DNA of 64,000 nucleotides from Eledone cirrhosa (lineage: Eukaryota): assembly GCA_964016885.1 (NCBI GenBank), contig OZ024742.1, forward strand, positions 365,800,001 to 365,864,000, written 5' to 3'. The position numbers were made by a program, and so were the translations under genes. The notes beneath the pieces were generated by a model. It was not told the DNA's origin and searched no databases. It saw nothing but the letters and a program-made list of their open reading frames with translations. Positions 56,280-64,000 of this stretch are shown piece by piece; within the stretch, counting starts at the first letter, position 1, and every line of letters starts with the position of its first letter.

Positions 56280-56341
<62 letters not shown>
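56280..56341. repeat. (TA)n microsatellite
   Basis: About 30 perfect TA units. Confidence 0.98.
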
Positions 56342-56345
<4 letters not shown>

Positions 56346-56538
56346 GAAACACACAGATACATGCGGACACACACATATATACATGAATGCATCCGCACCC
56401 AACTGTGAGTTAAGGGTGCCAACTTCACCGATGTTGCTCAACATCGGTGAAGTTGGCACCCTTAACTCACAGTTGGGTGCGGATGCATTCATGTATATAT
56501 GTGTGTGTCCGCATGTATCTGTGTGTTTCTTAATATAT
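56337..56538. mobile_element. Perfect fold-back palindrome (100-bp arms, 2-nt CT loop), MITE-like
   Basis: 56337-56436 is the exact reverse complement of 56439-56538, checked base by base. It lies at the end of a (TA)n tract. The MITE interpretation is inference. Confidence 0.75.
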
Positions 56539-56950
56539 TAATAACTCCCTCTGGTCGAACAATCTTTGAAGTGTGGGGACAACTGGAAAGCTTCCATTAC
56601 TCATACTTCTCGCCTTCTTCACTACCTCTTCTACGGCCTCGATATGAATACCCCCTCCGCCTCCGTGGTATTCTCTTCGTGGTTATAAGAGGCTTAGCTC
56701 TGTTTCTCGACCGTTATATCGCGTGACTATCTCCCCCTCCGCCTTTTGGGATTCTTTCTCACGTCGTGTAGACGCGTTCTTGAGACTAGTAAAATGAGGT
56801 ATCCTCTTGATAAGTCGGCAGACCTCGCAAGAACTCTATATCTTTGATATATTGTTTTTGTTTATGCCACGAAACTACGTAGTCGAGGAATTTAGGAACA
56901 GTTTAGGTATGATACATTTTATTACTAATTATATCTAAATGTTTCTTCTC
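56539..56950 (+). mobile_element. Non-coding Penelope-like/retrozyme-like fragment carrying a hammerhead ribozyme
   Basis: CpG-containing island between microsatellites with an internal direct repeat CCCCCTCCGCCT (56651, 56733) and a hammerhead at 56802-56889. Boundaries are approximate. Confidence 0.5.
56802..56889 (+). ncRNA. Type I hammerhead ribozyme, U3-A8 core variant, palindromic stem III
   Basis: Stem I TCCTC/GAGGA; core TTGATAA (CTGATGA with compensatory C3U/G8A); stem II GT(c)GGCA/TGCCAC extended by GCAAGAAC/GTTTTTGT and TATATC-TTT-GATATA; GAAA at 56871; stem III ACTACGTAGT (self-complementary); GTC triplet with predicted cut after 56884. Confidence 0.8.
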
Positions 56951-56961
56951 TCTTCATAATG

Positions 56962-57004
<43 letters not shown>

Positions 57005-57329: not shown

Positions 57330-57370
57330 GTTAGTCTGTTGTATATATGAGTGTATATATATATATATAT
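56951..57370. repeat. Compound (TA)n/(TG)n/(TATG)n microsatellite with three embedded copies of TATGTTAGTCTGTTGTATATATGAGTGT
   Basis: Directly visible. Embedded copies at about 57197, 57247 and 57327, with a fourth at about 57850. Confidence 0.9.
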
Positions 57371-57840
57371 CACGATAAATTAACGGAGGCATAGGCCGTC
57401 GTTATTCCCTGTAAATAATGTGCTCAAAGGAGAAGAGATCCTGAGCTCTTTAAAATATAATATGTTGAGAAGGTAACACACCAGAGAGAGATATATAGTG
57501 CGTTATCAATAATACAGGGAAAAAAACCACCAGTGTATGGAATCTATAACCTATGAAAGGCAGACTATAGACACGATAATTAAAAATATAAATTAAAGCG
57601 TAAATAAATACCTCTATAACTATATAACACACGTACAAATCCAAAGATATGTTTCACCAAAAATTTGTTGAAAGAAATGGTCTAGTCTCGGTTCATCAGC
57701 GTGTGTAAGGCCATACAATTCAGACAACATTAAGAGAATTTTAAAATTGACTGTCCAGCTACACGTGGGAGAGAGAAGTCACAGCGTGTTTAAGGGCAGT
57801 GAACCAGTGGCCTCTGAGAGACGAACTGCTAGAAAGGGCA
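57371..57840 (-). mobile_element. 470-bp hammerhead-bearing insert (Penelope-like/retrozyme-like) flanked by ~50-bp direct repeats
   Basis: Complex sequence bounded by near-identical TATATGTTAGTCTGTTGTATATATGAGTGTAT(AT)n at about 57320-57370 and 57841-57895 (TSD-like). It contains a canonical hammerhead on the minus strand and no recognisable protein. Confidence 0.6.
57627..57706 (-). ncRNA. Type I hammerhead ribozyme, canonical core
   Basis: Minus strand reads ACACACG (stem I) - CTGATGA - ACCGAGA...TTTTGGT (stem II) - GAAA - CATATCTTTGGATTTG (stem III, one T-T mismatch) - TA - CGTGTGT (stem I'). GTA triplet, predicted cut between 57634 and 57633. Confidence 0.85.
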
Positions 57841-57880
57841 ATATGTGTATATGTTAGTCTGTTGTATATATGAGTGTATG

Positions 57881-57911
<31 letters not shown>

Positions 57912-58039
57912 AAGAATGTTTTCGAAACAGCGAGCGGGTTTGAAATTATTATAAATGTAAGCTATCGCCGTATTTTGACTAAAGAAATTAAAGAAATTAT
58001 TTAGCCTGGTAGGGGTGTTAAGAACCCTCGGAGAAATGG

Positions 58040-58044
58040 AAAAA
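58040..58044 (-). terminator. Candidate Pol III terminator (T5) downstream of the tRNA-like unit
   Basis: TTTTT on the minus strand about 10 nt after the cloverleaf 3' end. Confidence 0.45.
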
Positions 58045-58053
58045 GATGAGTAT

Positions 58054-58125
58054 TGACGTACATGGGAGTCGAACCCACATCTTTGGTTATCCAGACCACT
58101 GTGCTACCATTTACACGAACACATG
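58054..58125 (-). pseudogene. tRNA-like cloverleaf (tRNA-derived Pol III unit or pseudogene; nominal anticodon GGA)
   Basis: Acceptor CATGTGT/GTACGTC (6 of 7 pairs including G-U), D-arm GTGT-AAATGGTA-GCAC, anticodon arm TGGT-CTGGATA-ACCA, T-arm GTGGG-TTCGACT-CCCAT (B box GGTTCGACTCC). The short variable loop and T37 are atypical for a true tRNA-Ser. Confidence 0.7.
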
Positions 58126-58215
58126 TGTTGGTGTAAATGGTAGGGTTCTTAACACCCCTACCAGGCTAAATAATTTCTTTAATTTCTTTAGTCAAAATAC
58201 GGCGATAGCTTACAT

Positions 58216-58220
<5 letters not shown>

Positions 58221-58295
<75 letters not shown>

Positions 58296-60314: not shown

Positions 60315-63300
60315 TTTCTTTATTAACCACAAGGGTGTACATAAAGTAGACATTAAGGACAGTGCAGGACAATACAGGACGGTACAAATGGGCATTTCTG
60401 CGTGTAAAAAAACAAAAAAAACAGAGGGTGTAACAAAAATAACAATGAAAAATTCCCCAATAGGGGGGAGACTTCGGAGGGACATTTGTGGAGAAAGCCC
60501 AGTAAAAAGCCACAATGACCCTGACCACCAAGGCAAGTGCCCTCTCCGAGTTTTCCACCTTTAATTTACAGATATATACTCAGAGTAGGCCCATTCACTC
60601 GGGCCATTCTTGCTTCTCTCACCCATCTTTCAACAAAATGCTGGGAAAAGAGCACTTCCCTCTCTACTCTGATTTTCCTTTTCAAATGAAATTTGAAAAA
60701 GTCAATCAGAGCATCACCGAAGAGGTAAGTGCTCGTCTTCAGCGCTTTCAAACGTGTCCACCATACTATCTCTTTCGCCATGGCCACCAGAGAGATAAAA
60801 ACTGCCTGCTCTTCCCGGCTAAAGGAGGAGGGCGGGGTAATCCTCACGATGGACTCAGATGATAGCCGGATCCGTCCTAAACGCGACAGCAGGTGTTCGA
60901 CATAAACCCACAAGTCAGCAATTTTCGGACACTGGACGAGTGCGTGCAGGACGGTTTCGTCGCCCTGCGCGCATCTCGGACATGCCCGGCTGACGGCACC
61001 TCCATGCCTGTAGAGTTTATCCCGAACTGGCAAGGCTCCTCGGTAGCACTGCCAGGCCAGAGATTTCTGGAAGTTGTCCATAGGCCCTGGCCCGAAAGTT
61101 CTTCCGAAGAGATTGGCTAGTTGATTTTTGTCGACGCCTAGAGTTTCCCCAAGTACGTCGTCGCTCTTCCCCTCCACTAATCCTCTATAGAACGCCGAGG
61201 TGGAGTTTCCACCGATCACATTGCCCGATTGGTCGAGGGCTGTGAGCGCCTGAAGAGATTCCAGTCTCCAGGCGCTCCCTCTCGGTCTTCGCTTGACCCA
61301 GGACTGCAGCTCCGTCAAGGAAACGAGCTGGGGAAATAAGTGTCTAGCAAACGGCGACCACACCTGATCACAGTCGAGGAAGAGGTGAAGATGTCGTAGC
61401 CTGAGCGCGTGTCTGCTCATCATCAGCCACGGCATGCCCAGCCCTCCACGTAGCGGGTGTGACAGCAGATGGACCGCCTGACCATCGGAGCGCGTCCCTT
61501 CCACAAAAAGCTCCAGCGCAGTCAGGCGAGGCTTAGGACAAGGTACGACGGTCAGGCGGTAGCAGATAACAGACGACGCGATGTACGCGTTAGCCACCTC
61601 CGCTCGACCTTTCAGGGATAGCTTCCTCTCCGCCCATTTCTGGGTGAGAGAAGCCACCCTGCTCGTCACCTCGTCCCAGTTTTTGTCCGTCTGGAGGTCC
61701 GGACCGAACCAGACCCCTAGCAATTTAACCGGTCCGTCCGTCCAGCGTCCGACAACGCTGTTGGACGGCATGGACCTGCCTCTCCAGGTGCCGAGCTGCA
61801 GGCCCACTGACTTTTCCTGGTTGATCATTGCTCCTGTCACCGCTTCGTATTCTCTTAGTGTAGTGCCGATCGCCTCGATGTGTTTGGCGTTCGACACCAC
61901 TACGGTGACATCGTACGCATATGCTGACACGGATCTTCCGCATCCTAGTTCGCGCGGGACGCCCCTCAACGTCTCCAGTTTGTGCAGTAATGGCTCGAGA
62001 GTCAATACGTACAAGAGGGACGAGAGGGGACATCCTTGGCGGACCGAGCGCATGATGTTGAACGGTTCCGACAGGTGACCGTTCACTCTCACCACAGAGC
62101 AGATGTCGCTGTGCATGGCAGCGATCGAGCCTCTGAAGACGGGCCCAAAGCCAGCCGCCCTCAGGACTGCCGCTAGGTAACGATGGTCGACCCTATCGAA
62201 AGCTTTCGACTGATCTAAATTGATCAAGGACCCACCCGTGCCAGGTTCCCTAGCTACCCTCTCTACGATGTATCGCATGAGGTGGAGGTTGTCGTGGATG
62301 GTTCTGTCGGGAATGGCACATGTCTGCGCCTCTCCCACCAGACCACCAACGACAAGCGCCAACCTCTTTGCTAGCACCTTGGCCAAAATCTTGAACTCTG
62401 TGTTTAGCAGAGTTATGGGCCGGAAATGATCTATGTTATCCCCCTTGTTCGGATCCTTTCTCAGCAGTCCCACCGCTCCTCGGCTCACAGAACTGGGAAT
62501 TCTCCCGTTCTGTTGCCAGTTGCAGTAGACGTCCGCCAAGAGGCCTCCGAACAAGTCTGGCATCTGTACGTAAAGTTCATAGGGCAGACCATCCAAACCA
62601 GGCGATTTACCCCTTGTGCAGCCAGTCATTGTCTCCCTTACTTCAGCGGCTGTTATCGGCTTTTCGCAACACTTCGCCTCAGTGGCCGAGAGCCGCGGCA
62701 GTCCGTCGAGGTAGACACTAAAGTCCATCCCTCGACCCGGCCCACCGCTGCCCCCGAACAGCTGAGCGAAGTGTCGCTGAAAAGCTTCACACATTTGCCC
62801 GGGATCGAGTATCATGCGCCCATCGTGGTCCACCAAAGACCGGATCGTGGTTTGTTGCCACGACGCGCCTCCGCCACTCGGGCCCATTGAACAGCTTTCG
62901 TCCCCTCGTGTCTGAGAGCACGTACCCTTGCTCTGACAACGCAGCCTTCGTGCTTTGCATTGAAGAATTGGTCAAGGGCCAATTTCGCCGCAAGCACGTC
63001 GGTCGCAATGCCTTTGCTAAGCGCCTCGTCTAATTTTCTAACTAGTTCTCCCTCTGCTCTATTTTTCTCTATTGCTAAAGCCTTACTAAACCTAATGGAT
63101 TCTATTCTAATCGCTCTTTTCAGAGCAAACCACCACTTGTTGTTGACGATGGCCCCCGTCAACGCCCGCTTAACTAGTTCGCTAATCCGGTCTCTGTAGG
63201 CCTTGCGCGCTGGTAAGGACGCGTTTAGCTTCCAGTAGCCGGGTCCTCGTCTATGAAGCCTATCTAAGTCAAGCACACAGATCACGAATTTGTGGTCCGT

Positions 63301-64000
63301 GTAGCTGATTATCTTGAATTGTGGACAGCCTATGCTACACCTATCTATTTCCCTACAAAATACTCTATCTAGATATGATCTGGATGACGCTATGCGATTT
63401 GTCCAAGTCCACATTGGCACATTCGGGAAATCCAATCGGTACCTGTGAGACAGTTCAAAACGCCTGAGCAGGTTGGTAAGGCTCTTGCACCCTCCACCCC
63501 TATCCGCTAATCCCACACAGTCCCAGCGTGCATCTAAGATCCCGTTCCAGTCGCCCACTAACACTAAAGAGCGGGACGTTCCAAGAAAGGTCTCCAGACG
63601 CCGGAAGAAATCAGGCCGCCCTGCTCCTGTCGGGGCATAGACGGCCACTAGCCTGAAAGCTTGCCCGTCTCCGCTGGTCACGTCCAGCACCACCAGCTTA
63701 TCCTCTGGGTCCAGGAGGATGGCTCGTATGGCGAGATCCAAACCTCTCCGAAAAAGCACAGCAACTCCTCCCCCCAATCCAGGACGGCTGGGAGATGCGT
63801 ACACATCGTAGCCGCCGAAGATCGGTGCGAAGGCCCGTGCTTCGGAGATTCTGGTCTGGCCACTACATCTATGTTTAGTGACCTGAGGTCGTTGAGCAGG
63901 TGACCCTGCTTCCATGACGACCCCAAGCCACGCGCATTTATGCTGCCTATTCTGAGTGAGGTCATGTTTAAAATAGAGTGGAAAAGATGGGAAAGACCAC
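60313..64000 (-). mobile_element. Non-LTR retrotransposon, Tx1/L1 clade (ORF2 and 3' UTR; 5' part outside the window)
   Basis: GC-richer segment encoding APE endonuclease, reverse transcriptase and C-terminal Cys/His motifs. The 3' UTR has AATAAA (60319-60324, minus strand) and abuts (ATT)n. Confidence 0.93.
60566..63965 (-). pseudogene. Disrupted LINE ORF2 (APE endonuclease - reverse transcriptase - zinc-finger-like C terminus)
   Basis: APE motifs SINARG, AVYAP, LVGDWNG, TWTN, YLDRVF, TDH. RT motifs KSPGLDGLP, FRPITLLNTEFKILAK, LDQSKAFDRVDH, VRQGCPLS, YAYD (for YADD), LLGVWFG. C-terminal CPRC..ETVLHALVQC. Frameshifts at about 63860 and 62850, plus a compensating pair at about 61512/61461. 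Confidence 0.92.

Follow-up and report, generated by a model that had tools for sequence, protein, structure and literature searches.

The window analyzed here, a 64,000-nucleotide stretch of Eledone cirrhosa DNA, begins with a long satellite (25% GC) built of about 2,040 monomers, in a mixture of 25 and 28 bp. Downstream of it, a head-to-head insertion derived from a 591-bp repeat lies between two (TA)n tracts, and a hammerhead ribozyme motif was found in its main arm. Three further features follow. A unique-looking stretch of 490 bp between microsatellites is 85% similar to part of another locus (L212), and neither an open frame nor a match to proteins of Penelope-like elements (PLEs) was found in it. 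Next to it, inverted arms of about 80 bp that end at TA enclose a tRNA-like sequence on the minus strand (Rfam tRNA, 37.2 bits), which has related copies in loci such as L041, L130, and L195; this is possibly a tRNA-derived element with a PLE-type inversion. Finally, a LINE-like endonuclease/RT region includes two long frames (395 and 801 codons) that are apparently frameshifted. A target-site duplication of the insertion is unreadable, as both of its ends fall within (TA)n. Since only one hammerhead is present in it, the window copy would allow neither the release of a monomer nor a dimer in cis, and this truncated copy is probably inert.

Table 1. Features of the window and reference loci of related families (positions refer to the window unless a locus is named).
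Feature	Position	Strand	Basis or detail
Satellite	1-54436		
Left (TA)n target tract	56280-56342	.	sequence
Entire insertion (inverted copy, head to head), abutting (TA)n on both sides	56337-56964	.	unit alignment
Short inverted arm, 105 bp, unit 141-245; 3' end is the long end (unit 245)	56337-56441	-	unit alignment
Main arm, 526 bp, unit 146-591 then 1-80; 3' end is the short end (unit 80)	56439-56964	+	unit alignment
Long hairpin predicted at unit 171-234, immediately upstream of the long end point	56464-56527	+	reference-unit fold, -32.7 kcal/mol
Hammerhead motif	56802-56889		
Stem I 5' strand, TCCTC	56802-56806	+	sequence, covariation
Catalytic core TTGATAA (U3 U4 G5 A6 U7 A8 A9; U3 at 56807, A8 at 56812)	56807-56813	+	sequence
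Stem II (57 nt); base conserved and containing a bulged C, upper helices variable	56814-56870	+	folding, covariation
G12 A13 A14 (GAA)	56871-56873	+	sequence
Stem III, perfect palindrome ACTACGTAGT (A15.1 to U16.1)	56874-56883	+	two copies predicted to form a 10-bp duplex
C17, after which cleavage is predicted	56884	+	hammerhead numbering
Stem I 3' strand, GAGGA; starts at unit position 1 (56885)	56885-56889	+	sequence, covariation
Long hairpin predicted at unit 1-71, immediately upstream of the short end point and sequestering the 3' strand of stem I	56885-56955	+	folds
Right (TA)n target tract	56962-56992	.	sequence
490-bp stretch between microsatellites	57360-57850		
Inverted arms of about 80 bp around tRNA-like sequence	57950-58225		
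tRNA-like sequence	58054-58125	-	
LINE-like endonuclease/RT region	60569-63999	-	
Family B reference locus	L102:4889-8007, contig C1 near 11.23 Mb		U3-A8 hammerhead, long stems II and III; thousands of matches
Family C loci	L106, L115-L126, L140-L159		

The motif is a type I hammerhead with a U3-A8 core, a long stem II, and a palindromic stem III, as the initial annotation had described it, and every one of its elements was located (Table 1). Positions 3-9, 12-14, A15.1-U16.1, and H17 were all present, with U3-A8 instead of C3-G8 as the Watson-Crick pair between positions 3 and 8, and the base of stem II is formed by G10.1-C11.1 with a single bulged C. When the 111-nt segment that contains the motif was folded in isolation, its stability was unremarkable (z -1.38). 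The anticipated failure of standard models was also observed: the Rfam hammerhead models gave no match in the window at gathering level, and none within 56300-57000 even at E<=10, where the low-scoring Rfam matches were TA-repeat and hairpin noise. The long stem II and the core swap are the likely cause. The suggestion of an uncatalogued family holds in that a large family is invisible to these models, but U3-A8 hammerheads as such have already been published. About 1,300 U3-A8 motifs were reported in PLEs of S. mansoni (PMC4209133), and natural examples are said to be active in vitro (PMC3088659). The accompanying statement that a U3-A8 swap can retain cleavage proved context dependent, as in the reported pairwise scan of another hammerhead only the G-C swap rescued activity and U-A did not (PMC9901934). 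The U3-A8 core alone is therefore already known, and any novelty would lie in a rule of insertion ends and in an A>G skew, both described below.

A genome search for family copies, as had been proposed, revealed at least 6,668 matches to the whole-motif pattern across the 3.0 Gb genome and none to the reversed control; counts from gapped patterns are lower bounds, and a looser pattern gave only 202 matches. With a 391-bp query, 40 near-identical matches were obtained among the 40 of 123 candidates that were scored, many of them 591 bp apart or inverted. The host repeat is a 591-bp unit that occurs in tandem and inverted arrays inside (TA)n. These arrays reach eight or more units with a period of 591 and one type I hammerhead per unit, and they are circularly permuted and show no LTR structure. 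Older subfamilies have periods of 578-623 and are approximately 73-88% identical to the young unit where compared. The unit has no coding capacity: its longest ATG-initiated frame is 75 aa, a tblastn search with seven PLE proteins from the same genome returned nothing below E 0.14, and a frame with RT plus GIY-YIG is absent inside the unit. The linked Penelope RT/GIY-YIG frame that had been expected was found neither in nor beside the unit, and the element is non-autonomous.

On every sequence-level test for the class, the unit would be a non-LTR retrozyme, a known kind of element. Like the metazoan non-LTR retrozymes in the accessible text of PMC7229834, it is a non-coding tandem unit with one type I hammerhead per unit and a GC content under 50%, with thousands of dispersed copies, a strongly self-paired predicted circle, and PLEs in the same genome. 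It differs from them in the U3-A8 core, the 57-nt stem II, and the 10-nt palindrome. Its 591 nt also compare with 170-400 nt reported for invertebrate retrozymes (PMC7229834) and with 51-972 bp in a second survey (bioRxiv 10.64898/2026.07.22.740005). The U3-A8 hammerheads of the S. mansoni Cercyon PLEs share with it the covariant core, a palindromic stem III, and the association with PLEs (PMC4209133). However, the Cercyon and other natural U3-A8 motifs, as presented in the accessible parts of PMC4209133 and PMC3088659, are heterogeneous and mostly single minimal motifs, in contrast to the homogeneous tandem non-coding family found here, with its full stem III and long stem II.

Conservation was examined among 20 homologous copies hand-chosen across several subfamilies, where core and stems were retained. 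U3 and A8 were invariant in all 20 aligned copies, position N7 being T, A, or G, and 91.9% of pairing cells could pair, versus 35-52% with slid partners. The stem covariation that had been sought was present: two of five pairs in stem I and two of five in the stem III palindrome were changed on both sides, and the base of stem II was conserved without two-sided change. Stem I occurred as TCCTC/GAGGA, TCCCC/GGGGA, TCCTC/GGGGA, TTCTC/GAGAA, and TTCCC/GGGAA, and stem III as ACTACGTAGT or ACTGTACAGT, with the palindrome centre changing from ACGT to GTAC in older subfamilies. The central pair of this zero-loop palindrome was thus kept through a change from C-G to U-A, which is explicable only if two copies pair with each other in a duplex. 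None of 500 shuffles matched the covariation score, and 139 of 500 matched the count of seven two-sided pairs; the related rows represent few events. A MAFFT alignment that included family B (see below) was misaligned and kept out of the pair counts. The extension of stem I varies between subfamilies and is not conserved.

The 3-8 pair behaved differently from the compensatory change on which the initial annotation had based its argument for selection. In a sample of 30 loci picked by the 3' half alone (81 matches, of which 30 distinct ones were read), six lacked the 5' part, and the TTGANAA core was intact in 19 of the 24 others; none had C3-G8. Within the family, C3-G8 was found in no copy, U3-G8 in eight, and C3-A8 in seven, and these core variants were no rarer than the control changes T7C (six) and an upstream A>G (three). 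Hence neither covariation between positions 3 and 8 nor a depletion of single core changes was seen within the family. A pattern search of the genome also gave no matches for a canonical-core relative with a short stem II and the same palindrome. A contrast of fixed differences between old and young subfamilies (core and stems 0/44, upper stem II 12/44, flanks 53/252) was set aside because it is partly circular, some 27 of the 44 core and stem positions having been specified in the search pattern itself. The case for selection comes from the covariation of stems I and III, not from the 3-8 pair.

Fold predictions point to a ribozyme that would act between neighboring units. The palindrome ACTACGTAGT is predicted to form no hairpin alone (0.0 kcal/mol) and a duplex of -12.9 kcal/mol. 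In a two-unit transcript, the double hammerhead was placed 2.8-6.1 kcal/mol above the minimum free energy (MFE) and two monomeric hammerheads 13.5-17.2 kcal/mol above it; the single hammerhead was predicted 4.8 kcal/mol above the MFE. Self-cleavage of the unit RNA is accordingly predicted to take place in a double hammerhead. When 130 nt of upstream sequence was included in equilibrium folds, the probability of stem I was at most 0.02, and no co-transcriptional window favouring stem I was found in the fold predictions. As a circle, the plus strand folded with a z-score of -6.5 and the minus strand with -1.3 (40 shuffles each), and the ribozyme is folded off in the predicted plus-strand circle. 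According to the accessible text of PMC7229834, a hammerhead blocked in this way is found in plant retrozymes and in only some mussel circles.

The ends of insertions were tallied in each of the 49 loci that account for the first 100 pattern matches (the first 54 Mb of contig C1) and in 16 further loci including the window. The 3' ends fell at unit 77-83 or 242-254 in 99 of 103 cases (hereafter sites 80 and 245), and they adjoin (TA)n in the junctions inspected. A long hairpin is predicted directly before each 3' end, which finishes in TA-like bases, in older copies as well, where a hairpin resembling that of unit 171-234 is also predicted. Of the 35 inverted insertions (among which the L060 pair is a local duplicate counted twice), 33 combined one short and one long end, two had one odd end, and none had two alike. 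The 5' ends were scattered, with one of 103 within 6 nt of the cut site where about two are expected, and four arms ending at unit 576-579 were inspected and all found to run through the site. As there is no excess of 5' ends at the cut site, the genomic copies hold no record of cleavage. In most arrays the units on both arms were near-identical, and they carried common insertion-specific variants, which indicates that both arms were copied from one template lineage. The arrays of L047 and L037 have a periodicity of 1,182 bp, in that one set of private variants recurs in alternate units; this fits a dimer template or later duplication.

These observations leave little room for a dispersed minisatellite spread by DNA-level recombination, in which the hammerhead-like motif would be a matter of chance or a fossil. 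Arrays in L047 and L060 do show possible later local duplication, but the fixed 3' ends with random 5' ends, the (TA)n targeting, the inversion rule, and the covariation, along with the strand-asymmetric fold and the A>G skew, point to an RNA template. Such an origin is extremely improbable, being largely refuted by the end tally (99/103 and 33/35). The unit insertions instead bear PLE-type marks, namely 5' truncation, an inverted 5' arm, a tail at one end, and a microsatellite target. The retrozyme and PLE context and the dimer-type stem III, as originally proposed, are supported.

A search of the same genome for other U3-A8 hammerheads, with a general pattern that excluded T7, gave 4,915 matches versus 109 in the control, and nearly all of the 100 matches listed belonged to one family, here named B. 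Its tandem unit of 3,118 bp ends in a U3-A8 hammerhead and has an open frame of 719 aa with the motifs RLRWR (RWK-like), DKTG, YRDD, the linker CNCPDRSIC (CxCX5C), YIG, CNLC (CxxC), and CKH (CxH). Judged by its motifs, single ORF, C-terminal endonuclease, and (TA)n target, family B is assigned to the Hydra-clade PLEs. Pfam gave no match on the frame, and among the Atlas neighbors of the protein HTH_animal was present on 25-38% of members. In 24 loci, mostly chosen for opposite-strand matches, all 20 inverted pairs had one end of each kind, 11-25 and 95-103 nt past the cut site (about +17 and +97). The same arrangement of ends is therefore found in the unit and in an ORF-bearing PLE. The one-of-each rule was not found in the PLE and retrozyme literature open to search; subscription papers and Repbase/Dfam lay outside that search and may describe the repeat. 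Literature searches on Penelope inverted copies, tails, and pLTRs at both ends, and on cephalopod non-autonomous Penelope elements with ribozymes, gave no match, and titles and abstracts on octopus hammerhead ribozymes included nothing on the 591-bp family.

Additional hammerhead repeats were observed. Family C is an older U3-A8 hammerhead repeat with the palindrome ACTATCGATAGT (72 matches) that often ends in (TA)n and is apparently tandem and non-coding in the loci inspected. Besides C3-G8 families, another two U3-A8 motifs were seen whose stem II is short (L021:2367 minus and L093:2422; L281:198 minus and L288:2397 minus). A canonical C3-G8 minimal hammerhead ends a few bases before (TA)n in L034, L042, L045, L059, and L065, and in L059 it lies downstream of a PLE ORF with a C-terminal GIY-YIG match. 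Two young Hydra-type PLE families (L280-L339) each had 150 scored matches at 96-100% identity, and no recurring hammerhead was found within 1.5 kb of them.

The resemblance to these elements raises the question of whether the unit is an orphan pseudo-LTR, that is, the end of an autonomous PLE that has lost its ORF and was amplified in cis by its family, which escaped detection here. The PLE-type inversion, the tail, and the (TA)n targeting are identical to those of the local Hydra PLE, whose hammerhead is of the same design, and vertebrate retrozymes are reported to match PLE pLTRs (bioRxiv 10.64898/2026.07.22.740005). However, all subfamily loci examined close on themselves as units of 580-620 bp with no in-register ORF, and no nucleotide or protein similarity to the PLE families compared was detected (three Hydra-type families in depth). 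The best match between the unit and family B was not significant (E 0.95), and only TA/TG repeats and one neighboring unit copy were common to the unit and the 60 loci of the two young families. Family B and the families of L070 and L041, considered as autonomous partners, had no sequence in common with the unit, and no autonomous PLE sharing its sequence was found among the three Hydra-type families and the PLE fragments in the loci examined. An orphan pseudo-LTR is therefore regarded as very unlikely.

Sequence variants provided a further view of the template. When 63 insertions were compared, the variants common to every overlapping copy within one insertion included A>G at 29 sites and T>C at nine (p 3e-6 after composition). 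The excess was also seen among variants private to one insertion (15 versus 7, p 0.007) and among those polarised by older copies (23 versus 10, p 5e-4), while variants of single units showed no skew (A>G 13, T>C 18). A G stood directly 5' of the changed A in two of 29 cases, versus 28 of 133 for all A. ADAR editing disfavours a G 5' of the target A. The skew thus fits A-to-I editing of plus-strand RNA before copying, and suggests that edited RNA was retro-copied. In family B, the skew was opposite (one A>G and 24 T>C, majority-polarised), and the strand asymmetry may therefore have other causes, such as RT error or polarity. Retro-copied edited retrozymes were not found in the accessible retrozyme and PLE papers or in literature searches, subscription papers and Repbase/Dfam being beyond reach; a search for A-to-I edited retrotransposons with A-to-G genomic copies gave no match, and one for retrozymes and ADAR a single unrelated review. 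The unit was present in six sequencing runs from three studies, none of which was recorded as RNA. Contigs of four of these runs were compared with the array; in one (X1), a single 621-nt contig (591+30) lay wholly on it, as would result equally from a closed loop in a 31-mer assembly or from a tandem array.

Taken as a whole, the window copy is with good confidence read as one truncated copy of a 591-bp U3-A8 hammerhead unit that is likely a non-LTR retrozyme. RNA of the unit is predicted to be cut by its own double hammerhead, and a PLE RT/GIY-YIG enzyme likely copied it into (TA)n. A tandem array would be transcribed, and neighboring hammerheads would pair via the 10-nt palindrome and cut after C17 to yield 591-nt monomers, as the anatomy and covariation of the motif lead one to predict. 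By analogy to other retrozymes, the monomers would then likely be ligated to circles, in which the ribozyme is predicted to be folded off. The PLE enzyme would nick both (TA)n strands, and the DNA ends would prime at unit 80 and 245, one each, as the observed end points suggest. Copying would pass the cut site for up to several rounds, from a circle or an uncut multimer, and give the tandem arms joined 5' to 5' that are seen in the arrays.

The last step could also be explained by a non-autonomous PLE copied from uncut tandem transcripts, with no circle needed and with a hammerhead that is retained although it seldom cleaves or has a role only when protein is present. The arms do read through the cut site without enrichment of 5' ends there, the hammerhead fold is predicted to be disfavoured at equilibrium, and the alternating unit variants of L047 and L037 fit a multimer template. 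The hammerhead of the Anolis Poseidon PLE is reported to require protein and to be unnecessary for in vitro insertion, as hammerhead mutants still inserted and unprocessed RNA was the main substrate (PMC11167929). A published caution on predicted cleavage in general is that one of nine predicted Xenopus retrozyme dimers is reported to have cleaved (bioRxiv 10.64898/2026.07.22.740005). Against copying from uncut transcripts, the near-identical units and the insertion-specific variants on both arms are what several rounds of copying from a single template would produce, the covariation of stems I and III extends across 20-25% sequence divergence, and the stable circular fold is strand specific. 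Copying from uncut transcripts is thus considered unlikely, and the self-cleaving retrozyme is preferred.

The copying step proposed for this retrozyme has parallels in published PLEs. The purified Anolis Poseidon enzyme cleaves AT-rich DNA on both strands and initiates at two sites within the RNA (Frangieh et al. 2024, PMC11167929). As proposed for the unit, two internal RT starts define a tail there, and each of the two cut strands is extended. In the accessible account of that system the start sites are adjacent and show no strand difference, whereas here each arm uses one site, the two sites are 165 nt apart, and both finish in TA-like bases that could pair with the target. Tails, inversions, a (TA)n bias, and other features of the Hydra clade were described by Craig et al. 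2021 (PMC8557442). The unit resembles that clade in its (TA)n targeting, inverted 5'-truncated arm, and tail at one end, and differs in having no ORF and in its tail of 165 nt, versus 80 nt in the local Hydra family and 30-40 bp in PMC8557442. Four Hydra hammerhead rows in File S2 of that paper have C3-G8, versus U3-A8 here. Head-to-head (TA)n insertions with two fixed 3' ends are not described for metazoan retrozymes in the accessible portions of the papers compared.

Mobilisation of non-LTR retrozymes by PLEs has been proposed before (Cervera and de la Pena 2020, PMC7229834; Li et al., bioRxiv 10.64898/2026.07.22.740005), and for animal retrozymes it has so far been argued from co-occurrence and from pLTR similarity. 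The retrozyme insertions described here bear a countable PLE signature that is common to an ORF-bearing PLE of the same genome. That each inversion pairs a short end with a long one limits the ways in which PLE inversions and tails can originate, a step that the cited papers leave unsettled, and with the 591-nt RNA, the 719-aa PLE frame, and a (TA)n oligo the copying step becomes testable in vitro. Because Rfam misses the family, hammerhead counts in such genomes are underestimated. Tentatively, and with somewhat more doubt than belief, the observations may be joined into a single picture: a circular RNA with two dedicated priming sites at the feet of hairpins, a dimeric PLE enzyme that uses one site per DNA strand, A-to-I editing before copying, and an overlooked U3-A8 radiation. 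If this is true, asymmetric priming would build inverted rolling-circle insertions, a radiation of U3-A8 hammerheads with a long stem II, comprising at least five families in this genome, would have been missed by standard models, and host RNA editing would be written back into the genome and drive the evolution of the family.
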